A stretch of 64,000 bases of DNA. It comes from a virus. The position numbers and the translations under genes are program-made. The stretch's first letter is position 1, and each line of letters begins with the position of its first letter. The stretch covers positions 32,001 through 96,000 of IMG/VR virus record IMGVR_UViG_3300035670_000019; one strand, written 5' to 3'. The notes below the pieces were generated by a model that had not been told where the DNA came from, made no database searches, and was given only the letters and a program-made list of their open reading frames with translations. This document shows positions 43,382 to 58,787 of the stretch, one piece after another.

Positions 43382-44332
43382 ATGATCACCGACGCAAGGA
43401 ACTACTACAAGCCGTTTGAATATCAAACTGCATTTGATTTCTACAAAGACCAACATAGAGCACATTGGTTAGCAGATGAAGTCCCACTCGCATCAGATTT
43501 GAACGATTGGAAATTAAAATTAACAGAACCCGAAAAGAATTTAATTGGAAACATATTAAAGTCATTTGCTCAAACAGAAGTACATGTTAATGATTATTGG
43601 TCAACAAAAGTATCAGTTTGGTTTCCGAAACCCGAAATACAAGCTATGGCTCGTGTATTTGCTGATTTTGAAAGCATCCACGCTGAAGCTTATGCTCGAT
43701 TAAATGAAGAATTAGGTTTAGATGATTTTAAAGCATTTTTAGAAGACGAAACATCTAAGGCTAAAATCGAACGCTTGATTGAAACACCCGGTGAAACAAC
43801 AGAAGATAGAGCAGTTTCATTAGCCATATTTTCAGCGTTTACTGAGGGTGTAAATTTATTTTCTTCGTTTGCTGTGTTAATGAGTTTCCAATTAAGAAAC
43901 TTAATGAAAGGTACAGGTCAGATTGTTGAATGGAGTGTTAGAGATGAATCACTACATTCAAAAGCAGGTTGTTGGTTATTTAGAACACTACTTGAAGAAC
44001 AACCAGAACTAAACACTGACGAATTAAGAGAAAAAATAATTGAAGCATGCCATTTATCAGTAAAACTTGAATTTGATTTTATTGATAAAGCATTTGAAAT
44101 GGGAAGCATTGATGGTTTAAATAAAGAACAATTAAAAAACTTTATTAAAGCCCGTGCTAATGAAAAAATGATTGAATTAGGTTATAAAGCAATTTATAAT
44201 GATATTGATCCTAACCTTTTAAAACAAATTGAATGGTTTGGACATTTAACATCAGGTAAAACACATCAAGATTTCTTTGCGGGTAGAGTAACAGCTTATG
44301 CTAAGTCTACAGCGGATTGGGATGATTTATAA
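43382..44332 (+). CDS. nrdB: Ribonucleotide reductase class I, beta subunit
   Basis: ESIHAEAY (radical Tyr present), EGVNLFSSF, RDESLH and HQDFF. Confidence 0.96.
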   Translation: MITDARNYYKPFEYQTAFDFYKDQHRAHWLADEVPLASDLNDWKLKLTEPEKNLIGNILKSFAQTEVHVNDYWSTKVSVWFPKPEIQAMARVFADFESIHAEAYARLNEELGLDDFKAFLEDETSKAKIERLIETPGETTEDRAVSLAIFSAFTEGVNLFSSFAVLMSFQLRNLMKGTGQIVEWSVRDESLHSKAGCWLFRTLLEEQPELNTDELREKIIEACHLSVKLEFDFIDKAFEMGSIDGLNKEQLKNFIKARANEKMIELGYKAIYNDIDPNLLKQIEWFGHLTSGKTHQDFFAGRVTAYAKSTADWDDL

Positions 44333-44341
44333 TATTAAAAA

Positions 44342-46066
44342 ATGAGTATACAAGTGGATTCAACAAATTGGATTAAAGGAAAGCACTATCCGGAATGGAT
44401 GGATGAGATTGCAGTAAGTATGATTTCAAAAGGTTATTTATTACCTGATGAAGATGTATTTGATGCATATAAAAGAGTAAGTAAGTTTGCTGCTCGTCGC
44501 TTACGCCGTAAAGATTTACAACCATTCTTTTATGAGGCGATGGTTAAAAACTGGTTATGCTTAGCATCACCTGTATTATCAAACATGGGTACTGAACGTG
44601 GAATGCCTATTTCATGTTTTGGTATTGATGTAGGTGATAGCATTGAAGGTATTGCTGATGCTAACTCAGAACTAATGAGATTATCGTCTCAAGGTGGAGG
44701 TGTTGGTATTGGTGTATCTCGCATTAGAGGACGAGGTAAAACCATTAAAGACAATGGAGTATCAGAAGGTGTTGTTCCGTGGTGTAAAATTTATGACTCT
44801 ACAATCTTAGCTACTAATCAAGGTAGTGTTCGTAGAGGAGCAGCATCTGTTAACCTAAACATTAACCACTCAGACATTGAAGAATTTTTACAAATTCGTA
44901 GACCAAAAGGTGATGTTAACAGACAATGTTTAAATCTTCATCAATGTGTTGTTATTGATGATGAGTTTATGAATAAACTTGAGAATAAAGATCCTAAATC
45001 ATTAAAGATTTGGGGTGAAATTCTTAAGACACGTCTTGAGACAGGTGAACCTTATATTATGTTTGAGGATAACATTAACAATGCTAATCCTGAAGCATAT
45101 AAAAAGAACAATTTAAAAGTATCAATGACTAATATTTGTACTGAGATTGCTCTCTATACAGATGAATTACACTCATTTATTTGTTGTTTATCATCACTTA
45201 ACTTAGCTCGCTGGGAAGAATGGAATGAGTATAAGTTTGAAAACGGAATGACATTGCCTGAATTGGCTTGTTGGTTCTTGGAAGGTGTGCTTCAAGAATT
45301 TATCGATAGAGCTAAAAATATCAAATTCATGGAAAACACAGTTCGCTCAGCTACTAAAGGTAGAGCAATTGGAGTTGGTGTTTTAGGTTGGCATACTTTC
45401 TTACAACAAAAGGGATTACCATTTGTAGGTATTCAAGCAAATTCTTATACAAGAATAATGTTTGATTTTATTGAAAAAGAAGTATTAAAAGCATCTCGTG
45501 CTCAAGCAGAATTATATGGTGAGCCAGAATGGTGTAAAGGTACAGGTTTGAGACATACTCACCACATGGCACCCGCACCTACAGTATCAAATGCTCATAT
45601 TTCAGGAGGTGTATCACCTTCAATTGAACCTATTCCTGCTAATGTTTATAATTTGAAAACAGCTAAAGGTGTATTTATTAAACGTAATAAAATTCTAGAA
45701 GAATTACTTACTAAAAAAGGATATAACATTGATAGCGTTTGGGATCAGATTTTAAAAGATCAAGGTTCAGTTTTAGGACTACCTGATTATATTTTAACTG
45801 ATGAGGAAAAAGAAGTATTCTTAACATTTAAAGAAATTAATCAGTTAGAAATTGTTAAACAAAATGGCATTAGACAAAAATACGTTGACCAAGCAATTTC
45901 ATTGAATCTCACGTTTGATCCCAATGACGCACCAAAGTGGATCAGTCAAGTACATAAAGAAGCTTGGAAACAAGGAGTTAAAACATTATATTATTTACGC
46001 ACTGAAAGTGTTTTAAGAGGAGATAATTTGCAACGTCTAGCAGATTGTATCAGCTGTGAAGGGTAA
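44342..46066 (+). CDS. nrdA: Ribonucleotide reductase class I, alpha subunit (short, no evident ATP cone)
   Basis: SPVLSN, SCF, GGGVG, TNICTE, CCLSS, APTVSN, DQAISLNL, KTLYY and C-terminal CISC. Confidence 0.96.
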   Translation: MSIQVDSTNWIKGKHYPEWMDEIAVSMISKGYLLPDEDVFDAYKRVSKFAARRLRRKDLQPFFYEAMVKNWLCLASPVLSNMGTERGMPISCFGIDVGDSIEGIADANSELMRLSSQGGGVGIGVSRIRGRGKTIKDNGVSEGVVPWCKIYDSTILATNQGSVRRGAASVNLNINHSDIEEFLQIRRPKGDVNRQCLNLHQCVVIDDEFMNKLENKDPKSLKIWGEILKTRLETGEPYIMFEDNINNANPEAYKKNNLKVSMTNICTEIALYTDELHSFICCLSSLNLARWEEWNEYKFENGMTLPELACWFLEGVLQEFIDRAKNIKFMENTVRSATKGRAIGVGVLGWHTFLQQKGLPFVGIQANSYTRIMFDFIEKEVLKASRAQAELYGEPEWCKGTGLRHTHHMAPAPTVSNAHISGGVSPSIEPIPANVYNLKTAKGVFIKRNKILEELLTKKGYNIDSVWDQILKDQGSVLGLPDYILTDEEKEVFLTFKEINQLEIVKQNGIRQKYVDQAISLNLTFDPNDAPKWISQVHKEAWKQGVKTLYYLRTESVLRGDNLQRLADCISCEG

Positions 46067-48536: not shown

Positions 48537-49058
48537 ATGGTTACAGCTAAAGAAGTTTTACAAGAATTTAATCCTACATTTGGTATCAAAGCTCCTGCTA
48601 AACCACCAAAGATGAAAAAGTTCAATGTTTTTTATTGGCATAGGCGTTATCCAACTCATAAGTTTTTGCCTGATAAAGAACATATATGGAATAAATGTAA
48701 AAATGGAGACTTTGAATATTCACCGTATGCTAAGTATATTAACTATGAGTATTGGTGGATGGCTGAAGAAATAGCTGCTCTTCGCAACAGTGACAAATCA
48801 CACTCAGTAAAACAAGAATTAGAACGTGAAATTATAACCAGTTATAACAAACGCCTAAAAAACCTCAGACAAGATTTTCAGCGTGATGAATTTGAACGTA
48901 TGCAAAATCTAAAAAACAGTCTCCGCAAAACATTTGGTGGTACTAAAGCAGATGTTGATGAGTTTATTGAGAAACGAGCATTTGGCACCACAGATGAAGT
49001 AATCAGACAGTACTATGCTTGGATAAGTACTGCAAAAACTGATACTCTTCCTTTTTAA
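48537..49058 (+). CDS. Hypothetical protein
   Basis: 173-aa ORF in the operon. Confidence 0.7.
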   Translation: MVTAKEVLQEFNPTFGIKAPAKPPKMKKFNVFYWHRRYPTHKFLPDKEHIWNKCKNGDFEYSPYAKYINYEYWWMAEEIAALRNSDKSHSVKQELEREIITSYNKRLKNLRQDFQRDEFERMQNLKNSLRKTFGGTKADVDEFIEKRAFGTTDEVIRQYYAWISTAKTDTLPF

Positions 49059-49066
49059 AAGTGTGT

Positions 49067-49095
49067 TTGGCAAACATTAAAATAATATTTATATT
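49067..49095 (+). promoter_or_regulatory. TTGGCA-N17-TATATT promoter with an overlapping late motif ATATTTATA (49085-49093)
   Basis: Both motifs read directly upstream of the dpdA-like gene. Confidence 0.7.
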
Positions 49096-49103
49096 AAATC
49101 GTT

Positions 49104-49889
49104 ATGAAAGTATCTCACGAAGTTCCATTAGCATTATTAGAAATGTCAAAAAGTTTTAATGATTATGACTACTGTCTACCTCATTTGCTAGACAAATATG
49201 AAGAATACAAAAAGTATTTTCAATGGGCTAAAGAAAATAATCGTTATATCATTATGGATAATTCATTACATGAATTAGGTCATGCTTATGATACTGACCG
49301 TTTAATGCATTGGATTAATGAATTACAACCAGATGAGTTTATTGTTCCTGATGTTTGGGAAGATATGGAAGCATCAATTAAAAATGCTGCTGAATGGATT
49401 AGAATTGCTCTTCCTCCTAATATTCTTAAAGTAGCTGTTGTTCAAGCTAAAAGTATTAGAGAAGCAGCTGAATGTTATTTTAAATATAAAACATTAGGTT
49501 ATAAGAAAATAGCATTCTCATATGGTGCCGCTTATTATAAAGAACATTTTCCGCATCCAACATCAGCTGTAGCAACAGCAGTAGGACGAGTATCTGTTAT
49601 AAGTAAACTATACAAAGAAGGTATTATCAAAGACACAGACAATGTTCACTTGCTAGGATGTGCTATTCCACAAGAATTTGTTCACTATAGAAACATGCCT
49701 TTTATCACTACTATTGATACATCAAATCCTATTATGGCAGCAATTGAAGGTACACTTTATGAACCATATGGTTTAGATCAAAAACCTAAAACTAAAATTG
49801 ATGATGTTATAGATAGTAAAATTGATAAAGTACAGTTTGGAAAAGTTATTATGAATACTAAATATTTTAGAACAATAAATGGAATATAA
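49104..49889 (+). CDS. TGT-fold DNA-guanine transglycosylase, DpdA-like
   Basis: IMDNS, IVPDV, VAVVQ, VHLLG and IDTS resemble TGT/DpdA motifs. It heads the queC/D/E/folE cluster. Confidence 0.7.
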   Translation: MKVSHEVPLALLEMSKSFNDYDYCLPHLLDKYEEYKKYFQWAKENNRYIIMDNSLHELGHAYDTDRLMHWINELQPDEFIVPDVWEDMEASIKNAAEWIRIALPPNILKVAVVQAKSIREAAECYFKYKTLGYKKIAFSYGAAYYKEHFPHPTSAVATAVGRVSVISKLYKEGIIKDTDNVHLLGCAIPQEFVHYRNMPFITTIDTSNPIMAAIEGTLYEPYGLDQKPKTKIDDVIDSKIDKVQFGKVIMNTKYFRTINGI

Positions 49890-50064
49890 ATCACTTTATG
49901 ATCATTTAGGCAGAGCCGCAGGTGGTCAACTAGGAAAACAAGTAGCTGAGGCTGCTGTTCGAGATGGAGTAAAAATTCAAACTCGACAAGTATCTAACCC
50001 TAAGTATGAAGGAGAAGTAATGCTGTATCCTTCAGATTGGCTTGAAAATTATTTTAATAAATAA
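49879..50064 (+). CDS. Small hypothetical protein
   Basis: 61 aa, overlaps the upstream stop (SLYDHLGRAAG). Confidence 0.7.
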   Translation: MEYKSLYDHLGRAAGGQLGKQVAEAAVRDGVKIQTRQVSNPKYEGEVMLYPSDWLENYFNK

Positions 50065-50078
50065 AAACAATAAAAGTT

Positions 50079-50348
50079 ATGCCTTATTTTTCTACAGACG
50101 CCGAATTAGACATTTCAATTGATGAATTTCTTTCTGAATGTGATTCAGGAGATATTAGAGAGCTTATTAACGCACTTATTGAAGATGGTCATTTAACTCC
50201 AAAACAGGTATTTAACCATAAAGCATCTGGAGTAACAGCAATGGAACAAGATCATATCAATATGTGTAATAAACTATCTGATAAATTCTATCAAATGAGT
50301 AATGAAGATATTCAAGTATTAGAAACCTTATATAAAAAATATTGTTAA
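50079..50348 (+). CDS. Hypothetical protein
   Basis: 89 aa with an AAAGTTATG start context. Confidence 0.7.
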   Translation: MPYFSTDAELDISIDEFLSECDSGDIRELINALIEDGHLTPKQVFNHKASGVTAMEQDHINMCNKLSDKFYQMSNEDIQVLETLYKKYC

Positions 50349-50349
50349 T

Positions 50350-51234
50350 ATGAAAAAACAAGCAGTATTATCCTTAAGTGGAGGAATGGATAGCTCCACA
50401 TTGCTGCTTCATCTACTTGCCAATGGCTATGAAGTAACAGCGTTATCATTTGATTATGGGCAAAAACATAATGTTGAATTAGAACGTGCTAAAGATTTAG
50501 TTAAGTATATTAATGGTAATCCAAGTCGTTTATTCCATCATGATCATGCTCCAAATGGATTTGATGAAATTTATCCACTAGTAAAACATCAAGTAATTGA
50601 ACTTAAAGGACTATCTGAACTATTAAATTCAGCATTAGTAACTGGAGGTGAAGAAGTACCTGAAGGACACTATGCTGAAGAAAATATGAAGGCAACAGTA
50701 GTTCCTAATCGTAATAAGATTTTTAGTTCAATTATTCAAGCAGTAGCATTATCAATTGCTGAACAAAAGAATACTGAATGTGCTATTGCAATGGGTATTC
50801 ATGCAGGTGATCATGCTATTTATCCTGATTGTCGTCAAGAGTTTCGAGATATTGATTTTGAAGCATTTAAAGCAGGCAATTGGGGAAGTGAGAAAGTAAA
50901 AATTTATACTCCATATCTTGATACTGATAAGTTTGGTATTTTAGAGGATGGTGATAAATGTATAGAATGCTTGAAACTAGACTTTAATGAAGTATATAAG
51001 CGCACTAATACATCTTATAAACCAATTAATTGGACCTGGACAGATGTAAATGGTGAAATTCGCTCTAAATGGTACTCAGATTACAAATCAGCATCATCTG
51101 TAGAACGTATTGAAGCATTTATGAAACTAGGAAAACCAGACCCAGTAGAATATGCTGATGAAGAAGGTCCTACAACTTGGAGAATGGTAACAAATCATGT
51201 TAAACAAATATTAGAAAATCATGCCAACATCTAA
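50350..51234 (+). CDS. queC: 7-cyano-7-deazaguanine synthase
   Basis: SGGMDS, FDYGQKH, TVVPNRN and HAGDHAIYPDCR. Confidence 0.95.
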   Translation: MKKQAVLSLSGGMDSSTLLLHLLANGYEVTALSFDYGQKHNVELERAKDLVKYINGNPSRLFHHDHAPNGFDEIYPLVKHQVIELKGLSELLNSALVTGGEEVPEGHYAEENMKATVVPNRNKIFSSIIQAVALSIAEQKNTECAIAMGIHAGDHAIYPDCRQEFRDIDFEAFKAGNWGSEKVKIYTPYLDTDKFGILEDGDKCIECLKLDFNEVYKRTNTSYKPINWTWTDVNGEIRSKWYSDYKSASSVERIEAFMKLGKPDPVEYADEEGPTTWRMVTNHVKQILENHANI

Positions 51235-51409
51235 AAAACGAGGTGGGAAAAAAGCCCACAACAAACGAGTAGCAAAACGTAATACAAATATTGCTACAGC
51301 ACAACGTGCGTATGAAAAACTTTATACTAATGCACTTCAAGAACATTTAAATAAATTAAATCAAGAACAAAATGGAACATCCAAACCCGAAGAAACACCA
51401 GCGGATTAG
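51221..51409 (+). CDS. Small basic hypothetical protein
   Basis: 62 aa with a KKRGGKKAHNKRV N-terminus; overlaps the queC stop. Confidence 0.6.
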   Translation: MPTSKKRGGKKAHNKRVAKRNTNIATAQRAYEKLYTNALQEHLNKLNQEQNGTSKPEETPAD

Positions 51410-51527
51410 TTTTGTTAAATCTGCTTTACGAATTATAGGTTATTTATTAATATTAACAGAACCAGCAGCTGCTGTCACATTTTTAGTATGTAGTGAAGCT
51501 TTAGGTATATTGGAGGAATTAGTATGA
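51372..51527 (+). CDS. 51-aa small membrane protein missed by the ORF track (MEHPNPKKHQRISFVKSALRIIG...EALGILEELV)
   Basis: Hydrophobic hairpin; its stop overlaps the thioredoxin start (ATGA). Confidence 0.65.
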   Translation: MEHPNPKKHQRISFVKSALRIIGYLLILTEPAAAVTFLVCSEALGILEELV

Positions 51528-51778
51528 GTAAACAATTATTTTATTATAGCGCACCTTGGTGCCAACCATGTGAAACATTAGGCCCAATTATGGACCAAGT
51601 AAACAAACAAATACCTATCTGTAAAATTAATATTGACTATGCTGACCCAGCTGTTATTGAATCAGCACAAATAAGAAACATTCCTACAGTGGTGTTAGTA
51701 GAAAATGGAAAAGAAGTTCGTAGATTTACAGGTGTAAAATCATATAACCAAATAATAGACTTTTTAAATTATGGCTGA
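51524..51778 (+). CDS. Thioredoxin/glutaredoxin-like protein
   Basis: WCQPC active site, IPT cis-Pro and RFTG. Confidence 0.9.
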   Translation: MSKQLFYYSAPWCQPCETLGPIMDQVNKQIPICKINIDYADPAVIESAQIRNIPTVVLVENGKEVRRFTGVKSYNQIIDFLNYG

Positions 51779-52031
51779 ATTTAGTAAACAATGGGCTGAA
51801 AAATATGACCCTGAAGGTGGTTGGGATTTTGATATTGAAGAAGTATCAAACCAATTAGATCCAAACCATTATGTACCTATGATCTGTGAAGGTTTTGGAT
51901 TTATAGCTATTGGACGAGATGAAAATTATAATGTTTTGCTTGCTATGCCTACTGGTGAAACAGAAACAGATGAAAATGGTCAAATTTCTGATATAGTAAC
52001 TTGGCAAGCATATGAAGATATCGTAAAATAA
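51771..52031 (+). CDS. Hypothetical acidic protein
   Basis: 86-aa ORF overlapping the thioredoxin stop. Confidence 0.7.
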   Translation: MAEFSKQWAEKYDPEGGWDFDIEEVSNQLDPNHYVPMICEGFGFIAIGRDENYNVLLAMPTGETETDENGQISDIVTWQAYEDIVK

Positions 52032-52037
52032 AATAAT

Positions 52038-52502
52038 ATGGGAAAATTTCAATCAACAAAATTATTTGATGGATACAGTACTTGTTTCCGTCAATGGAAA
52101 GCAGAAGGAACTCATTGTAGATTCTTACATGGTTATGCTGTATCATTTCGAGTATGGTTTGAAGGTGATTTAGATGAGCGTAATTGGGTATTTGATTTTG
52201 GAGGCATGAAACGTGCCAAACATAAAATATCAGGCATGGCTCCTAAAGATTATTTTACTTGGTTACTTGATCATACAACAATCATAGCTGAAGATGATCC
52301 TTACATGAACCAATTTTTACAAATGCATATAGACGGTGTTATTCAATTGCGAGTATTACCAGCTACTGGTTGTGAAAGATTTGCTGAGTACCTTCATACA
52401 ACTATTAATAATTTTCTAAAAAAAGAAACAGATGGAAGAGTTAAAGCTGTCAAAGTTGAAGTTTACGAACATGAAAGAAACAGTGCTAGTTATGGAGAAT
52501 AA
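52038..52502 (+). CDS. queD: 6-carboxy-5,6,7,8-tetrahydropterin synthase
   Basis: C.FLHGY, WVFDFG, LDH, GCE and EVYE. Confidence 0.92.
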   Translation: MGKFQSTKLFDGYSTCFRQWKAEGTHCRFLHGYAVSFRVWFEGDLDERNWVFDFGGMKRAKHKISGMAPKDYFTWLLDHTTIIAEDDPYMNQFLQMHIDGVIQLRVLPATGCERFAEYLHTTINNFLKKETDGRVKAVKVEVYEHERNSASYGE

Positions 52503-52549
52503 CTACTGGACTTCAACCCCAACATATAATACTAATTTTATTTATAACT

Positions 52550-53332
52550 ATGAAACCAGGAAGAATAACTGATTATAACAAAACTCTACCAATTGTAGAA
52601 CTATACCCCGCAGTGCAAAGTGAAGGCAGTAGAGCCGGAATGCCTACTATTGTTATTAGAACTACAGGTTGTACTCACAGATGTTGGTTTGGAGAAGGTG
52701 GATGGTGTGACTCATGGTACACCTCAATCCACCCCGAAAAAGGCAAATACACATTCAATGATATAATTGAAATGTATAACAAATACCCACATGCAAGAGA
52801 AATGATGCTAACAGGTGGTTCACCAACTATGCATCCTGATCTTGTTAATGAACTTACTCATTTTGCATATCAACGTGGGATATTTATTACAATAGAAACT
52901 GAAGGTTCCCATTTTATTGAAACAGACTATCCAATCGGCTTGGTATCTTTGTCTCCTAAGTTTAGCAATAGCAATCCTAGGATTGGAATTCTTACTCCTC
53001 AAGGTAAAGAAGTGGATCAAAAGATGATAGATCAACATAATAAGTTGCGTCTTAATAAAGAAGCAATTAGACAGATGCTTGAGTATCATGATGATTTTCA
53101 TTTTAAGCCTGTTTGTAATCCTATTGAGATGCCTGAAGTATGGGAAGAGATAGAGGCGTTTAGACATGAAATGGATATTTCAAAACGTAAAACATGGATT
53201 ATGCCTCCTGGTGATACTAGAGAAGAATTAATTCGAGTTTATCCTATGGTAATGGATTTCTGTAGAGACAATGGATACAACTTTACAGGTAGAGAACATA
53301 TTATTGCTTTTGATGTTCAACGGTGTGTTTGA
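52550..53332 (+). CDS. queE: 7-carboxy-7-deazaguanine synthase (radical SAM)
   Basis: VQSEG..AG.P...IRTTGC, CxxxC-x7-CDS, LTGG.P, IETEG and SLSPK. Confidence 0.92.
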   Translation: MKPGRITDYNKTLPIVELYPAVQSEGSRAGMPTIVIRTTGCTHRCWFGEGGWCDSWYTSIHPEKGKYTFNDIIEMYNKYPHAREMMLTGGSPTMHPDLVNELTHFAYQRGIFITIETEGSHFIETDYPIGLVSLSPKFSNSNPRIGILTPQGKEVDQKMIDQHNKLRLNKEAIRQMLEYHDDFHFKPVCNPIEMPEVWEEIEAFRHEMDISKRKTWIMPPGDTREELIRVYPMVMDFCRDNGYNFTGREHIIAFDVQRCV

Positions 53333-53383
53333 TCCTAAATAAAGAGTATATTTTTATATTTTTTAGGATATTTATAATAAAAT

Positions 53384-54007
53384 ATGAATTTCCCGTACAA
53401 ACAAATATGTAAAGAATGCTTAATAGATTTTAAATCTAAAGGTTCAAATAAAAAATTCTGTTCTAAAGAATGTAAACTTAAATGGAATGCTAAAAATATT
53501 TACTCATATACATCATGCTCAAATTGTGGAGAACAAGTAAGACATTCACCTAGTGATAAATATAAACACAAATTTTGCTCCAATACATGCCAGGGAAAAT
53601 GGAGAATGGATAATTTAAAAGAAGAAAATATTCAATTAGCATCTAAAATGAGAGAAAGCTGGTGTGAAGATAGTTGGAAAAAAAGTATAGAGACTCGAAA
53701 GAAAAATGGTAATATAATTACTAGTCATAATTGGAAACAATTTTGGAAAAAATGTGATTATTTAACTAGAAAAATAAGACAAAAAATGCTTGAAAATTGG
53801 GATGGATTTGATTATATTGATGGAGAATATATTAAAGACAACTTAAAACTTCATTATACAGATACTAATTATCCAACATTAGATCATGTTAAACCTAGAA
53901 GTGTATGTTTTAAAGAAGGATTAACTCCTGAAGAAACTACTAAACCTGAAAATTTAAAATGGACTAAAAGAGTAAATAATAGTTCTAAAAGTAACAAATA
54001 TGAGTAA
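53384..54007 (+). mobile_element. Free-standing HNH homing endonuclease with N-terminal Cys zinc-binding repeats
   Basis: Two CxxC...FCSxxC units and C-terminal TLDHVKP...PENL...NNSSK. Has its own late motif (53368) and interrupts the que cluster. Confidence 0.75.
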
Positions 54008-54236
54008 ACCAATTTTTATAATACGATTTCCATATAGTGATAATAATATGGATAGAGATATTTTTAAAAAAAATTATGAAGATATAAGTAACAAATTAAA
54101 TGATTATCATGTATTAACAATAATGGGTGATGATGTTGAAACAGTAACATTTGAATGTTTTAATGCTCCTCATACTGAAATAGAATTTGAAGAATTAAAG
54201 TATCGTGTATTAGAATTACTGAAATACAGAGTATAA
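54000..54236 (+). CDS. Hypothetical protein
   Basis: 78-aa ORF overlapping the HNH stop. Confidence 0.7.
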   Translation: MSKPIFIIRFPYSDNNMDRDIFKKNYEDISNKLNDYHVLTIMGDDVETVTFECFNAPHTEIEFEELKYRVLELLKYRV

Positions 54237-54237
54237 T

Positions 54238-54513
54238 ATGGATAAAAAATTACTAAAAGAAACAGTAGAAAAAGAAAATGTTATATTATTTTTCTACGCT
54301 GACTGGTGCGGTGGTTGTAAAGTAGCAAACCCAATGGTTCAAAAAATAGCTACTAAACTTAACCTTAGGTTGATTCGAATTAATGAAAATACAGAACTAG
54401 AAGAAGAATATGAAGTAGATTATTACCCACATCTTATTCTAGCTAATAAAGGCAAACTTCGACATTACCCAGGTGCAACTATGATAAGAGATCTATATGA
54501 AAGTATTATTTGA
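54238..54513 (+). CDS. Second thioredoxin-like protein
   Basis: FFYADWCGGC and YYP. Confidence 0.85.
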   Translation: MDKKLLKETVEKENVILFFYADWCGGCKVANPMVQKIATKLNLRLIRINENTELEEEYEVDYYPHLILANKGKLRHYPGATMIRDLYESII

Positions 54514-55006
54514 AAAATCCCAAATTGAAAACCGAATTAAAGAAATCGGTATTCAAATCCTTAATCGCCATAAAGAAGAAAACAATCCAATTGTATTAGT
54601 TGGAGTACTAAATGGTGGTTTTATGTTTTATTCTAAGCTAGTAGATCAACTAGCTCTTTTAGACCCACAATGTGATTTTATTAGAGTAAAATCATACAAA
54701 GGTAGAGAGCATGAAGTACCTGAAATTATTATTCCCTCATCTTTAGATGTTGAGAATAAATTTGTCTATATTATAGATGACATTTATGATACAGGTTTAA
54801 CAATGCAAGTACTTAAAAACCAATTTACAGATTTAGGAGCATCAGGAGTTAGTGTTATAACACTAGTTAAACGAGCAATTAATGAAGTAGATATGCCTAT
54901 AAATTCACTTTATGGTTTTGAGATTCATGATGAATGGGTTGTTGGTTATGGAATGGACGATGAAGATGGTAGAAAAAGAAGTCTGCCTTATATTTTGGCA
55001 ATTTAA
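54497..55006 (+). CDS. hpt: Hypoxanthine/guanine phosphoribosyltransferase-like protein
   Basis: VGVLNGGFMF, KSY, PRPP loop IIDDIYDTGLT, LVK, WVVGYGMD and RSLPYI. Confidence 0.92.
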   Translation: MKVLFEKSQIENRIKEIGIQILNRHKEENNPIVLVGVLNGGFMFYSKLVDQLALLDPQCDFIRVKSYKGREHEVPEIIIPSSLDVENKFVYIIDDIYDTGLTMQVLKNQFTDLGASGVSVITLVKRAINEVDMPINSLYGFEIHDEWVVGYGMDDEDGRKRSLPYILAI

Positions 55007-55023
55007 GAATAATAAGTTATATT
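54995..55023 (+). promoter_or_regulatory. TTGGCA-N17-TATATT promoter for folE-mazG-polB
   Basis: 17-bp spacer counted. Confidence 0.7.
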
Positions 55024-55031
55024 AAGGTTAT

Positions 55032-55727
55032 ATGGAAAACAATAGAAGAAAATTTCACAATGACATTGAATGTGTCCCTACAGGTTTTGCTAATGGATCA
55101 GCAACTGATAGGCCTCTAACAAATGAGGAAAAACAACAAATGATTGAAGAAGCCACTGTTCATTTTGGTAACTTCTTAACAGCACTAAAATGTGATTGGC
55201 AAAACGATCCTAACTCTGCTGATACACCTCGTCGTGTAGCTAAAGCATATGTTAATGATTTGTGGGCTGGTCGTTATAATGGATTTACTGATATTACTTC
55301 ATTCCCATCAGACGGATATGATGGAGTAATTATTGAACGTAATATCCCACTAACATCAATGTGTTCTCATCATCACCAAACAATTAGTGGTGTAGTTCAT
55401 ATTGGTTATATTGCTGGTGAGAAAGGTCGAGTGATTGGTTTATCTAAACTAAATCGTATTGTAGAGCACTTTGGTCGTAGAGGTGCTATTCAAGAACAAT
55501 TAACTGCTGCTATCCATCAAGCTGTAAATAAGGTTTGTGAAGGTAATAAAGGTGTAGTTGTAACTGTAGTAGCATCTCACAATTGTGTAAGTTGTAGAGG
55601 TGTTAAACATCAAGGTGCTGCAATGATTACTACTAAAGCATCAGGTGTGTTTATGGAAAATGACAATTTAGCTCGTAAAGAGTTTTTTGATTCACTTAAA
55701 ATCAATAACGGAAATGTCTCAATCTAA
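55032..55727 (+). CDS. folE: GTP cyclohydrolase I
   Basis: TPRRVAK, SMCSHH, GLSKLNRIV, QEQLT and HNCVSCRGV. Confidence 0.96.
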   Translation: MENNRRKFHNDIECVPTGFANGSATDRPLTNEEKQQMIEEATVHFGNFLTALKCDWQNDPNSADTPRRVAKAYVNDLWAGRYNGFTDITSFPSDGYDGVIIERNIPLTSMCSHHHQTISGVVHIGYIAGEKGRVIGLSKLNRIVEHFGRRGAIQEQLTAAIHQAVNKVCEGNKGVVVTVVASHNCVSCRGVKHQGAAMITTKASGVFMENDNLARKEFFDSLKINNGNVSI

Positions 55728-56199
55728 AGAAAATTATGTACCATTTGTAAGCGAGGTAGAGGAGTTTAACGCTACAATGGGCAAACCAAATAACTATACT
55801 CCTAGTATTCCAGATGAAAAAGAATGGATGTTTGTTTATAATTTTATTCTAGAGGAACTAGAAGAATATAAAGAAGCATGTCAACAAGGAGATATTGTAG
55901 GTGTATTAGATGCACTATGTGATATTACTTATGTTTCATTAGGTAACGGAGCAATGTTACACGGTCTAAAAGATAAAGTACAAGACGCGTATGCTGAGGT
56001 ACAAGCATCAAATATGTCTAAGGCTTGTAAAACAGAAGAAGAAGCTCAACAAACTGTTAACCGTAGAACAATAGAGCAAGGAATGGAATGTCACTATGAA
56101 AAACAAGGTGATTATTGGGTAGTGTATCGTACTTCTGATCGTAAGGTGATGAAGTCAATTAACTATTTTAAACCAAATCTAGAACAATTCTTTAAATAA
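55714..56199 (+). CDS. MazG-like (all-alpha) NTP pyrophosphohydrolase
   Basis: EELEEY, DALCDITYV, EVQASNMSK and KVMK. ATG at 55714 preferred over TTG at 55687. Confidence 0.85.
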   Translation: MSQSKENYVPFVSEVEEFNATMGKPNNYTPSIPDEKEWMFVYNFILEELEEYKEACQQGDIVGVLDALCDITYVSLGNGAMLHGLKDKVQDAYAEVQASNMSKACKTEEEAQQTVNRRTIEQGMECHYEKQGDYWVVYRTSDRKVMKSINYFKPNLEQFFK

Positions 56200-58787
56200 T
56201 GTACCAATCAATCTATTACGATTTTAGTACTTACACCTATTATTTACGAGACGATAAGCAAGGCTGGATGGAATTCCAATACCAGCCTACTTATTGGCAA
56301 CGTACAAACGAATGGTCTGAGAATGCTAGACCTGTTCTAACAGGTGGATGGGCTGTACCTACTAAAAAGTATAGTAAAGATGATCCTGATTTATTAGAAA
56401 AAGATATTGATAAGTCACTTGTTGTATTACGAGAGTTGTACTATAAGGAAGATGATGTTGTACCTGCTTGGCATAACATAGTTTATATTGATATTGAGAT
56501 TGAAATGGGAGGTGCTTTGACACCTCACTATATTCAACAAGCACCTATGCCTCTTACATCTATTGCTCTTATAGATGTGACCACTAAACAAAAAATATGT
56601 TTTGTTGTTGACCCATCAGGCCAAATTAAAGAAACAAATCAAGATGATAAGTTAATCATACCTTGTAGAAACGAAAAAGAATTAATAGGTAAATTCTTAT
56701 CCAAATTTGAAGAACTAGATCCCACAATATTAGTTGGTTACAATTCAGATTACTTTGATATGCCTTACCTATACTTCCGAATTAAGCAAGTTGTAGGCGA
56801 AGATGAGGTACTACGTTTATCTCCAATCAGAAAGGTAACTGCTAGAGAATTTAATGGTGAAAACCAAATTACTATTGGGGGTGTTAATTGTCTAGACTAT
56901 ATGTTGCTTCATAAAAAATACATTATGAAGGAAGAACCATCATATAAATTAGGCGACATTGGAACCAAATATGTTAATCTAGGTAAAATTGAATATGAAG
57001 GTAATTTAAATACATTGTTTAAAGACGATATAAGCAAGTTTATAGACTATAACCTTCGAGATGTTGAAATCATTGAAGCACTAGAAGCTAAACTTAAGTT
57101 TATTGACTTAACAATAATGATTTCTCATATCTGTAATATTCCATATGAAAGCATTTATTGGAATACAGTTATGAATGAGGGTGCTATTTTGAAGTATCTT
57201 AAACGTGAAGGTATTATTTCACCTAATAAACCAACAACTCATAATCCATCACTTAAAAACTTTAAAGAAACATATGCTGGTGGTTATCTATTAGAACCTA
57301 TTCCTGGATTGTACTTTGATGTTATTGATTTAGACTTTACATCACTGTATCCTTCAATTATTAAGTCACTTAATTTAGGTATTGAAACATTAGTAGGTCG
57401 AATCAAAGTACCTTATATGGCTACCTATGAACAAAATCATAGTCTAGATAAACTTAAAGAACGTGATCCAAATGAAGAAGTTGTAGTTGAAAAAGTAAAT
57501 AAAAGAAACTATACTTTAACCCAAGCAAAAGTTAAACTAGGAGACCTAATTAAAATTATTGAAGACAATAACTTTACCATCTCAGCCTCAGGTGCTATGT
57601 TTAAAACTGATGAACAAAGTGTTGTAGCTAAGATTTTGGAAGGATGGTTTGATAAACGAGAACATTATAGAGGTTTAAAGAAAAAAGCAGGTAAAGAAGA
57701 AGATTGGGCTAATTATAAATTATATGATTTGTTCCAACATGCATTTAAAATCCTACAGAATGCAATGTATGGTACATTCGCTAAAAGTGGATGGCGTTAT
57801 ACTGACGGACAATTAATTTGTAGCGCCGCTATTACTAATACAGGTCAATCATTAACTCAAAATTCAATTAAGTTTGTTAATAATAAACTAAACACTGAAT
57901 TAGAATCCGATAAACAATACATTTGTATTAGTGATACAGATTCTATGTATATTGAATTAGGTGATTTATTAAAACACAGACACCCAAATTCAGTTCCTGA
58001 AGATAAAGACAAACATATCCTAGAGTTAGCAACTGAAATTCAAGATGAATCTAATCATCATCTAAATACTTTATGTAAAGAGCTATTCAATATTGACCCT
58101 AAAAAACATTACTTCCAGTTAAAACAAGAAGTAATTGCTAAAGGTATCTTAGTTACAGGTAAGAGAAGATATGCTATGTATATCACTAATAAAGAAGGTG
58201 TCACTGTTGAAGAACTAGATATGAAAGGTATTGAATTGATGAAATCCAATATGAATAAAATGTTTAAGTCATTTGGAGAACAATTCATTAAAGATGTTTT
58301 ATTTGGTAAACCTAAATCTGAAATTGATAAGTCAATTATTGACTTCTATAAATCACTCAAATCAGTAGACCCCAAACAACTAGGCAAACCTACTGGAGTA
58401 AAACAAATATCCTCATACCATATACCAGCTCGTGCAGGTGAAATGTTTAGTAATTTTAAATTGAAAGCACCTTCAAATACTAAAGCAGCTGTTCGTTATA
58501 ATGACTTATTAAAGTTTAAAAAACTAGATAAAAAATATGAATCAATAATTGAAGGTGATAAGATTTTTATTATTAACCTAAAACCAAACATGTATAAATT
58601 AGAAACTATTGGTTTACCAAATGCTAAAGTACCTGATGAGATAGAAAAGTTTGTTAAAATGTATATTGATATAGATGAAATTTTTGAATCATTATTATTG
58701 AATAAGTTAAAAGAACTCTATAGTGATCTTAAGTGGGAATTCCCGCCACTAAATGCTAATGTAACTAAATTTTTCTCCTTTGGATAA
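56199..58787 (+). CDS. Family-B DNA polymerase, gp43-like
   Basis: ExoI DIE, GYNSDYFD, YNLRDV, DFTSLYPS, KILQNAMYG, SDTDS and KRRYA. Confidence 0.97.
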   Translation: MYQSIYYDFSTYTYYLRDDKQGWMEFQYQPTYWQRTNEWSENARPVLTGGWAVPTKKYSKDDPDLLEKDIDKSLVVLRELYYKEDDVVPAWHNIVYIDIEIEMGGALTPHYIQQAPMPLTSIALIDVTTKQKICFVVDPSGQIKETNQDDKLIIPCRNEKELIGKFLSKFEELDPTILVGYNSDYFDMPYLYFRIKQVVGEDEVLRLSPIRKVTAREFNGENQITIGGVNCLDYMLLHKKYIMKEEPSYKLGDIGTKYVNLGKIEYEGNLNTLFKDDISKFIDYNLRDVEIIEALEAKLKFIDLTIMISHICNIPYESIYWNTVMNEGAILKYLKREGIISPNKPTTHNPSLKNFKETYAGGYLLEPIPGLYFDVIDLDFTSLYPSIIKSLNLGIETLVGRIKVPYMATYEQNHSLDKLKERDPNEEVVVEKVNKRNYTLTQAKVKLGDLIKIIEDNNFTISASGAMFKTDEQSVVAKILEGWFDKREHYRGLKKKAGKEEDWANYKLYDLFQHAFKILQNAMYGTFAKSGWRYTDGQLICSAAITNTGQSLTQNSIKFVNNKLNTELESDKQYICISDTDSMYIELGDLLKHRHPNSVPEDKDKHILELATEIQDESNHHLNTLCKELFNIDPKKHYFQLKQEVIAKGILVTGKRRYAMYITNKEGVTVEELDMKGIELMKSNMNKMFKSFGEQFIKDVLFGKPKSEIDKSIIDFYKSLKSVDPKQLGKPTGVKQISSYHIPARAGEMFSNFKLKAPSNTKAAVRYNDLLKFKKLDKKYESIIEGDKIFIINLKPNMYKLETIGLPNAKVPDEIEKFVKMYIDIDEIFESLLLNKLKELYSDLKWEFPPLNANVTKFFSFG

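Follow-up and report, generated by a model that had tools for sequence, protein, structure and literature searches.

How a phage comes to replace every guanine of its DNA with a 7-deazaguanine, and what a purine phosphoribosyltransferase (PRT) does among the genes for this replacement, are the questions raised by a gene cluster at positions 49104-58787 of the stretch of DNA analysed here (64,000 nucleotides, referred to as the window). The window comprises bases 32001-96000 of the 163,030-bp IMG/VR virus record IMGVR_UViG_3300035670_000019, which is rated 100% complete and represents an uncultured 163-kb myophage, a relative of Flavobacterium phage immuto whose host is probably a member of the Bacteroidota. 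The cluster encodes a transglycosylase of the DpdA3 subfamily together with FolE, QueD, QueE and QueC, an Hpt-type PRT, two thioredoxins, a MazG-like pyrophosphohydrolase and a family B DNA polymerase, PolB (Table 1). DpdA3 systems are the only known phage route to replacing every guanine, and how 100% replacement is reached has remained unexplained. The explanation favoured here, at slightly better than an even chance, is that the DpdA3 module swaps guanine in DNA for 7-deazaguanine and that the Hpt-type PRT recycles the guanine that is expelled. If this is true, the PRT would supply the missing driving force and the precursor economy for full substitution; whichever way the question is answered, the result would be of use in engineering fully modified, restriction-resistant DNA.

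Genes were called with Pfam, PHROG and NCBIfam profiles, and the cluster was compared with 83 IMG/VR loci (the related loci) in which DpdA3 shares 54-97% identity with that of the window. While the DpdA3 gene set was already known, the number of swaps between Hpt- and Gpt-type PRTs, the adjacency of the PRT to GTP cyclohydrolase regardless of whether this is FolE or FolE2, the mutually exclusive pattern of MazG-like and trimeric dUTPase genes, and three phased sequence motifs are additions of the present analysis.

The DpdA3 transglycosylase

Over the full length and with E values of about 1e-57, the DpdA of the window shares 39% identity with gp056 of Campylobacter phage CP220 and 37-39% with the immuto DpdA, a protein annotated as DNA guanine transglycosylase; both have been placed in the DpdA3 subfamily (PMC10516641). 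The gene that the initial annotation had called dpdA-like, in a cluster for 7-deazaguanine modification of DNA, can therefore be assigned to DpdA3 by identity as well as by fold. Complete replacement of guanine has been reported in CP220 (by 2'-deoxy-7-amido-7-deazaguanosine, dADG), phiST (by 2'-deoxy-7-deazaguanosine, dDG) and immuto (by fdPreQ1), in all of which DpdA3 is the only transglycosylase, as opposed to replacement of 0.1-30% with other DpdA types (PMC10516641). From the presence of DpdA3, post-replicative insertion of the modified base has been proposed (PMC10516641). The family is a large one: in a library of 1.8 billion proteins it counts 1,642 representatives at 50% identity, and it occurs in at least 588 IMG/VR loci.

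An AlphaFold (AF2) model of DpdA3, built from 80 diverse homologues, has a predicted local distance difference test score (pLDDT) of 97.9, and all of its top Foldseek matches in the PDB are either tRNA-guanine transglycosylase (TGT) or the DNA preQ0 insertase DpdA 7ui4 (prob 1.0, TM 0.6-0.7). As modelled, the protein is a bare TGT-type TIM barrel of 261 aa. A DpdA3 profile searched against PDB sequences gave a marginal match to DpdA 7ui4 (E 0.06) along with spurious de novo TIM barrels, and the relationship to TGT and DpdA thus appears to rest on fold, as seen in the model, and not on sequence. Seven residues are invariant in the 80 homologues (D52, E57, D83, R162, H182, G185 and D205), of which D52, D83 and D205 lie at strand C-termini in the model and are, judged by this position, candidate catalytic aspartates. 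No invariant cysteine is found among the same 80 homologues, which makes a TGT-style zinc site unlikely.

Fusions may hint at the form of the substrate. Among 10 long DpdA3 homologues, fusions were seen to a DpdN formyltransferase, to a DUF3310 tail and to homing-endonuclease-type domains (GIY-YIG, NUMOD), the last of which may be merged gene calls; none of the 10 is fused to a kinase, a PRT or MazG. In two metagenomic proteins, P0165 and P0228, DpdA3 is naturally fused to a PF00551 formyltransferase resembling DpdN, and such fusions suggest that both enzymes act on the same form of the substrate.

The predicted base

All four enzymes that are co-encoded for the synthesis of a 7-deazaguanine base are present. 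Compared with their immuto counterparts, the window proteins show identities of 61% for QueC, over the full length, 61% for QueD, 68% for QueE, 63% for FolE and 74% for the MazG-like enzyme, which corresponds to immuto gp208; QueE is also 66% identical to that of phiST. Since immuto QueC must supply preQ0 (7-cyano-7-deazaguanine) to QueF, its close relative in the window is predicted from sequence to yield preQ0 as well, or 7-amido-7-deazaguanine (ADG) should QueC stop short of its last step. The phage QueC clade, a 294-aa form common to immuto, has a long extension at the C-terminus as well as an insert within the protein and appears to be without the four-cysteine zinc cluster of cellular QueC; judged by sequence, either the amide (ADG) or the nitrile could be its product.

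No tailoring enzyme of the QueF, DpdN, DpdM or DpdL type was found. A queF gene had not been recognised in the window initially, and none is found in the whole 163,030-bp genome, which also holds no homologue of immuto QueF or DpdN; neither gene occurs within 10 kb of DpdA3 in any of the related loci. Because no such enzyme was found, the base would be used as such.

The phosphoribosyltransferase

The PRT scores 124.4 bits (3.8e-36) against TIGR01203, the hypoxanthine PRT equivalog, which is below the 150-bit cut-off, and 65.3 bits against PF00156, where the cut-off is 26.3. It aligns end to end with the Hpt structures of E. coli and Salmonella (1j7j, 1g9s) and, on these sequence grounds, is a genuine but divergent Hpt. 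In 29 phage Hpt homologues the loop that binds phosphoribosyl pyrophosphate (PRPP) is conserved as D-D-I-x-D-T/S-G (DDIYDTG in the window), as are a Lys/Arg for O6, the purine pocket W-x-x-G-Y-G-x-D and the Arg that binds pyrophosphate; D94, D95, D98, G100, T102, G150, G152, D154 and R161 are invariant, and W147 nearly so. In HPRT, the catalytic aspartate of the PRPP loop handles the N7 of the purine, an atom that 7-deazapurines do not have.

The PRT is present in 35 of the 38 related loci that extend at least 2.5 kb beyond QueE, the other three resembling a locus (L057) in which a cassette of about 7 kb pushes the PRT to the far edge, and in every one of the 39 loci that contain FolE. The slot is occupied by the Hpt type in 37 loci and, in 9 loci and immuto, by a short Gpt type that resembles P. 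horikoshii 1vdm and E. coli Gpt. On the maximum-likelihood tree of DpdA3 the type of PRT changes at least six times, with all six changes forced by well-supported branches; even the nearest relative of the window (L004, 89% DpdA3 identity) has a Gpt-type PRT. Despite these swaps the PRT adjoins FolE in 36 of 39 loci, the gap between them having a median of 18 nt, and adjoins FolE2 where FolE has been displaced. Such displacement is seen at L033:10281-11246 and L049:4859-5890 (and, by position, in L043), where the non-homologous FolE2 (GCYH-IB) directly follows an Hpt-type PRT. In Sphingomonas phage MMDA13, a PRT match lies inside an enlarged 295-aa FolE open reading frame (ORF), which suggests a PRT-FolE fusion. 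A guanine-type PRT is therefore a fixed part of the module, which outlasts replacement by an unrelated PRT family and stays beside GTP cyclohydrolase, and the link between hpt and the module drawn in the initial annotation turns out to be near-universal and fixed in position.

All three fully substituted phages also encode a PRT, as gp211 in immuto, gp064 in phiST and at 163869-164282 in CP220. For CP220, a negative result with Pfam PF00156 was discarded as false, as both a profile of phage Gpt-type PRTs and the annotation of the record find the gene. Hpt-type genes are essentially absent from cultured phages, and the Gpt type occurs there almost solely beside que genes (immuto, the phiST group, Brevundimonas, Synechococcus BUCT-ZZ01 and Sphingomonas phages). 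No PRT match was found in the partially modified deazaguanine phages (43 Mycobacterium records, Cellulophaga phages outside the phiST group, and Haloarcula). The PRT thus tracks the DpdA3 systems with full replacement. No discussion of this PRT was found in the papers accessible to the search, and the string "phosphoribosyl" does not occur in the text of PMC10516641.

Repeated exchange between Hpt and Gpt argues for a function that rests on their shared native activity, and the simplest one is the conversion of guanine and PRPP to GMP. That the PRT is linked to FolE or FolE2 rather than to QueC or DpdA3 is in keeping with a role at the entry of the pathway. Of the two roles first proposed for Hpt, salvage of the guanine released by base exchange or ribosylation of preQ0 into the nucleotide pool, the former is favoured by this evidence.

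The MazG-like enzyme and the polymerase

In the initial annotation, the MazG-like enzyme was to remove dGTP and a phage polymerase was to incorporate the modified nucleotide, following the logic of the PurZ/MazZ/DpoZ aminoadenine system. The enzyme matches PF01503 with 41.4 bits (cut-off 21.3), and its homologues in the related loci have a mean column identity of 68%, with invariant EExxE and DxxxD motifs (E47, E48, E51, D66, D70). Its model (pLDDT 84) has structural matches to DR2231, HisE and MazG, of which Deinococcus radiodurans DR2231 is the sole confident one (Foldseek prob 1.0; VIA Z 9.2 over about 110 residues, as opposed to 6.2 for S-2L MazZ, 7ody, and 5.9 for mouse dCTPase). DR2231 is dUTP-specific, has been solved with dUMP and dUMPNPP (2yfc, 5hva and others), and shares EExxE and DxxxD with the phage enzyme, although identity is about 20% and the phage protein carries, in addition, a conserved beta-hairpin region at its C-terminus.

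A pyrophosphatase precedes the polymerase in every related locus that extends at least 1.5 kb beyond FolE. This slot holds a MazG-like gene in 29 loci, a trimeric dUTPase or DCD-like gene in 8 and both in none, with at least three switches on the tree. A trimeric dUTPase is found neither in the genome of the window phage nor in immuto, and one is present in CP220. Since the genome has no other dUTPase, the MazG-like protein is, to judge by sequence and model, probably the dUTPase-type house-cleaning enzyme of the phage and not specific for dGTP. Its relatives occur in 237 phage records, mostly from genera with no DpdA3 match, and such independent occurrence of mazG is what the initial annotation had itself named as telling against its reading.

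The polymerase gives no sign of specialisation either. PolB, which is 32% identical to PolB of Microcystis phage Mel-JY01, is found in the window and in 22-31 relatives, whereas the same slot of the syntenic immuto genome holds PolA, of which the window phage genome has no homologue. This amounts to the exchange of a whole replicase family in a fixed slot (56199-58787 in the window, compared with L007:18807-21140) of an otherwise syntenic backbone of FolE, MazG-like, polymerase, GroES and GroEL genes.

Proposed guanine exchange and salvage

Taken together, these genes can be read as a cycle. FolE, QueD, QueE and QueC would convert GTP to preQ0 (alternatively to ADG or to the intermediate 7-carboxy-7-deazaguanine, CDG), and DpdA3 would exchange this base, untailored, for guanine in the phage DNA, completely or nearly so by analogy with the three DpdA3 phages that have been analysed. 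The Hpt-type PRT would then convert the released guanine and PRPP to GMP, which would both remove the competing substrate of the exchange reaction and refill the GTP pool on which FolE draws one-for-one. One GTP would be spent at FolE for each 7-deazaguanine base and one guanine freed at each exchange, and salvage would close the loop. With about 52,000 G in the genome (163,030 bp, 31.65% G+C), a burst is estimated by us to need millions of GTP, an amount comparable to the guanine-nucleotide pool of the cell. The two thioredoxins would most likely serve the adjacent ribonucleotide reductase (RNR), and PolB would act as an ordinary replicase.

Several points weigh against this cycle. DpdA3 could not be shown to be active in tests in E. 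coli (PMC10516641), and its action on DNA is an assumption. The protein also appears to be without the zinc subdomain that TGT enzymes use for holding nucleic acid, and a gene resembling a deoxynucleoside monophosphate (dNMP) kinase adjoins DpdA3 in CP220 and immuto, with a homologue 52 kb away in the genome of the window phage. As for the PRT, the swaps may be exchanges between phage-adapted alleles, which would weaken the argument that any guanine PRT will do; hosts already own Hpt or Gpt, so that only stoichiometry argues for a phage copy; and CDG can serve as the substrate of a purine-type PRT, as seen with TubE (PMC6112128). Finally, several G-containing palindromes are rarer than expected over the whole genome (observed/expected 0.57 for TGCA, 0.64 for CATG, 0.21 for GGTACC and 0.33 for GGATCC), while AT-only palindromes are near their expected frequency. 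Such under-representation is not obviously expected of a fully protected genome, and palindrome statistics were dropped as a proxy for protection, as some G-containing sites are avoided despite the predicted modification of every G.

Alternative explanations

A different class of explanation, which we regard as unlikely, has guanine replaced before replication, at the level of nucleotides, either through DpdA3 acting on dGMP or dGTP together with a dNMP-kinase-like enzyme or through a 7-deaza-GMP analogue that is made by the PRT and reduced by RNR, after which the polymerase would build a genome with deazaguanine throughout. Were the PRT or DpdA3 to act on nucleotides in this manner, 7-deazaguanine genomes would join those with hydroxymethylcytosine (hmC), 2-aminoadenine (Z) and deoxyuridine (dU) as pre-replicative systems.

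The first form of this idea, a base exchange at the nucleotide level comparable to the hmC system of T4, is decidedly improbable in our judgement. Here DpdA3 would act on dGMP or dGTP, the dNMP-kinase-like enzyme and the nucleoside diphosphate kinase (NDK) of the host would make the triphosphate, PolB would incorporate it, and Hpt would still salvage guanine. It would account for the complete replacement that sets DpdA3 phages apart from those with other DpdA types, for the bare barrel with no invariant cysteine and probably no zinc subdomain, for the inactivity of DpdA3 in the E. coli DNA assay, and for the nucleoside of ADG that has been reported from infected cells (PMC10516641). The kinase next to DpdA3 in CP220 and immuto is TMK-like, CP220 has an HD-domain protein upstream as well, and the homologue in the genome of the window phage lies at G000:29191-29721. 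However, a kinase of this type is found within 10 kb of DpdA3 in none of the 83 loci of this lineage, and the matches to kinase-family and HD-domain profiles in the genome are weak. Neither is there a convincing enzyme to clear dGTP, given that the MazG-like protein looks dUTPase-like and is interchangeable with trimeric dUTPases. In the fusions that were scanned, DpdA3 is joined to the DpdN formyltransferase and not to nucleotide enzymes, and every characterised relative among TGT and DpdA enzymes works on polynucleotides.

The second form, proposed in the initial annotation, is one to which we give only a slim chance. In it a 7-deaza-GMP analogue would be formed by the PRT through ribosylation of preQ0 or CDG at the expense of PRPP, and host guanylate kinase (Gmk), phage RNR and NDK would turn this analogue into the dNTP; the MazG-like enzyme would remove dGTP, and PolB would incorporate the analogue. 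A precedent exists in TubE, a purine-type PRT with proven CDG:PRPP phosphoribosyltransferase activity (PMC6112128); moreover, the PRT is a core and position-fixed part of the module, RNR lies just upstream, and cultured phages otherwise almost never carry a purine PRT. Yet the strictly conserved DpdA3 would be left without a role, and two unrelated PRT families, exchanged at least six times, would each need an unusual specificity. The Hpt, furthermore, has kept an aspartate where HPRTs have their catalytic one in the alignment, and it is to FolE or FolE2, at the entry of the pathway, that the PRT is linked and apparently fused, not to QueC at its exit. A MazG-like protein nearer to DR2231 than to MazZ, which alternates with trimeric dUTPases, and a polymerase family that is not conserved (PolB here, PolA in immuto) likewise fit poorly, and a ribonucleotide analogue would enter RNA too. 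A logic like that of PurZ/MazZ/DpoZ is accordingly not supported by the MazG-like enzyme, by the polymerase or by a canonical Hpt interchangeable with Gpt.

It is least probable, and would surprise us, that the PRT is a generic auxiliary gene for ordinary purine salvage from degraded host nucleic acids, placed by synteny and with no specific link to deazaguanine: although the PRT lies within a block of nucleotide metabolism (RNR, thioredoxins, dNTP pyrophosphatase and polymerase) and its residues are fully canonical, bona fide purine PRTs in 50,697 phage records occur almost solely beside que genes, they follow fully substituted DpdA3 phages and not large RNR phages generally, and their adjacency to GTP cyclohydrolase outlasts swaps of both partners.

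Comparison with known systems

The closest known counterpart is immuto, where the genes for QueD, QueE, the PRT, FolE, the MazG-like enzyme, the polymerase, GroES and GroEL are syntenic with those of the window phage and the PRT is likewise beside FolE. The two differ in that immuto has QueF and DpdN, for which reason the base predicted here is preQ0 (or ADG) as opposed to formyl-preQ1; in the type of the PRT (Hpt in the window phage, Gpt in immuto) and of the polymerase; and in that DpdA3 heads the cluster in the window phage, where the dNMP-kinase-like gene is distant and not adjacent as in immuto. CP220 and phiST also have a DpdA3 homologue, que genes and a purine PRT, but these genes are scattered and do not form one compact run. 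CP220 has the trimeric dUTPase and no MazG-like gene in such a role, and in phiST a MazG/dUTPase-like gene has been described beside the polymerase genes (PMC10516641). The final bases are ADG in CP220 and, through DpdL, 7-deazaguanine in phiST.

The PurZ/MazZ/DatZ/DpoZ system of S-2L and Vibrio phage phiVC8 resembles the window phage in the proximity of genes for base biosynthesis, a MazG-fold pyrophosphatase and a polymerase, and in an outcome, predicted for the window phage, in which one canonical base is wholly replaced. The MazG-like protein of the window, however, matches MazZ at superfamily level only, the polymerase is an ordinary T4-like PolB that is not co-inherited with the module, and the window phage has in DpdA3 a base-exchange enzyme that the Z system neither has nor needs. 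In the tubercidin and toyocamycin clusters (TubE/ToyH; PMC6112128), a purine-type PRT likewise stands beside FolE-, QueD- and QueE-type genes; these clusters have no TGT or DpdA enzyme, and instead contain GMP-reductase, decarboxylase and Nudix tailoring genes.

Organization of the module

All genes named in the initial annotation (dpdA-like, queC, queD, queE, folE, hpt, two thioredoxins, mazG-like and polB) were found where it had placed them, and to the composition given there can be added an HNH endonuclease and small ORFs that are also interleaved, as well as RNR just upstream (Table 1). The common order in the related loci is RNRb, RNRa, orf173, DpdA3, (orf61), QueC, thioredoxin, QueD, QueE, (thioredoxin), PRT, GTP cyclohydrolase I, dNTP pyrophosphatase and polymerase, with the two RNR genes preceding DpdA3 in those loci that extend far enough and thus forming a conserved upstream neighbour of the module. 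The idea that orf173 is a hidden kinase was rejected, as it has no P-loop and no family match. The HNH endonuclease and orf78 are missing from all 83 related loci, so that the segment 53384-54236, between queE and the second thioredoxin gene, is a recent mobile insertion in the modification operon and lies outside the pathway.

Table 1. Genes and promoter-like motifs of the 7-deazaguanine cluster and its upstream neighbours (positions in the window).
Feature	Position	Strand	Evidence and remarks
RNR beta and RNR alpha	43382-44332 and 44342-46066	+	Pfam PF00268 2.8e-65, PF02867 4.4e-94
orf173	48537-49058		Conserved upstream neighbour of DpdA3; in 42 related loci
Promoter-like motif TTGGCA-N17-TATATT	49067-49095	+	Ends 9 nt before dpdA3 ATG
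DpdA3-subfamily 7-deazaguanine transglycosylase	49104-49889	+	261 aa; phrog_19058 1.3e-51
orf61	49879-50064	+	Conserved in 31 related loci; no Pfam or PHROG match
orf89	50079-50348	+	No Pfam or PHROG match
QueC-like preQ0 (7-cyano-7-deazaguanine) synthase	50350-51234	+	Long phage form, 294 aa; PF06508 3.8e-39
Thioredoxin 1, CQPC	51524-51778	+	PF00085 1.4e-13; in 56 related loci
Promoter-like motif	52001-52029		9 nt before queD ATG
QueD, 6-carboxytetrahydropterin synthase	52038-52502	+	PF01242 3.3e-15; phrog_2389 1.6e-36
QueE, radical-SAM 7-carboxy-7-deazaguanine synthase	52550-53332	+	PF04055; phrog_2076 3.5e-47
HNH homing endonuclease	53384-54007	+	phrog_1271 4e-15
orf78, passenger ORF	54000-54236	+	78 aa
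Thioredoxin 2, CGGC	54238-54513	+	PF00085 2.3e-15; in 44 related loci
Hpt-type 6-oxopurine PRT	54497-55006	+	PF00156 5e-18
Promoter-like motif	54995-55023		9 nt before folE ATG
FolE, GTP cyclohydrolase I	55032-55727	+	Pathway entry step; PF01227 7.9e-42
MazG-like all-alpha (d)NTP pyrophosphohydrolase	55714-56199	+	ORF open from TTG 55687; PF01503 1.9e-10; phrog_671 1.4e-28
PolB, family B DNA polymerase, T4-like	56199-58787	+	PF00136 2.8e-30, PF03104

The overlaps among folE, the mazG-like gene and polB, which had been noted from the start, are real. The likeliest start of the mazG-like gene is ATG 55714 rather than TTG 55687, which gives an overlap of 14 nt with folE. The stop codon of the mazG-like gene shares one base with the ATG of polB, which is translationally coupled to it. 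These three genes had also been placed behind one promoter. A generic sigma-70 scan gave 58 sites where 62.5 were expected, which is not above chance; the generic sigma-70 and terminator scans were not used further. A motif of the form TTGGCA-N17-TAWAWT, on the other hand, has 4 matches in the window against 0.51 expected. Genome-wide, the + strand carries just 4 copies, and 3 of these end exactly 9 nt ahead of a start codon, namely the ATGs of dpdA3, queD and folE. Judged by sequence and position, the motif has the appearance of a promoter or regulatory site specific to the module, which would split the cluster into three co-regulated units, and the rare phased copy before folE makes a single promoter for folE, mazG and polB plausible.

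The cassette of about 7 kb that separates queE from the PRT at L057:13538-19160 has a counterpart in a similar series of ORFs in L067. It contains genes for an M43 metallopeptidase, a protein with a CHU_C domain of the type IX secretion system (T9SS), ThyX and a fragment of a PHO4-like phosphate transporter, and the T9SS domain points to Bacteroidota hosts.

Genome and occurrence

The genome has a G+C content of 31.65%, and almost all of its genes are on the same strand. A megablast of the 9.7-kb cluster against phages returned zero matches, and the lineage is without a close cultured relative. A cellular donor of the Hpt could not be named, as the homologue search was saturated by metagenomic phage variants. 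More than 100 such distinct variants of the protein, 92-96% identical, are present in public metagenomes, several of them on contigs of 160-169 kb, from which it follows that this phage species is abundant and microdiverse in nature.

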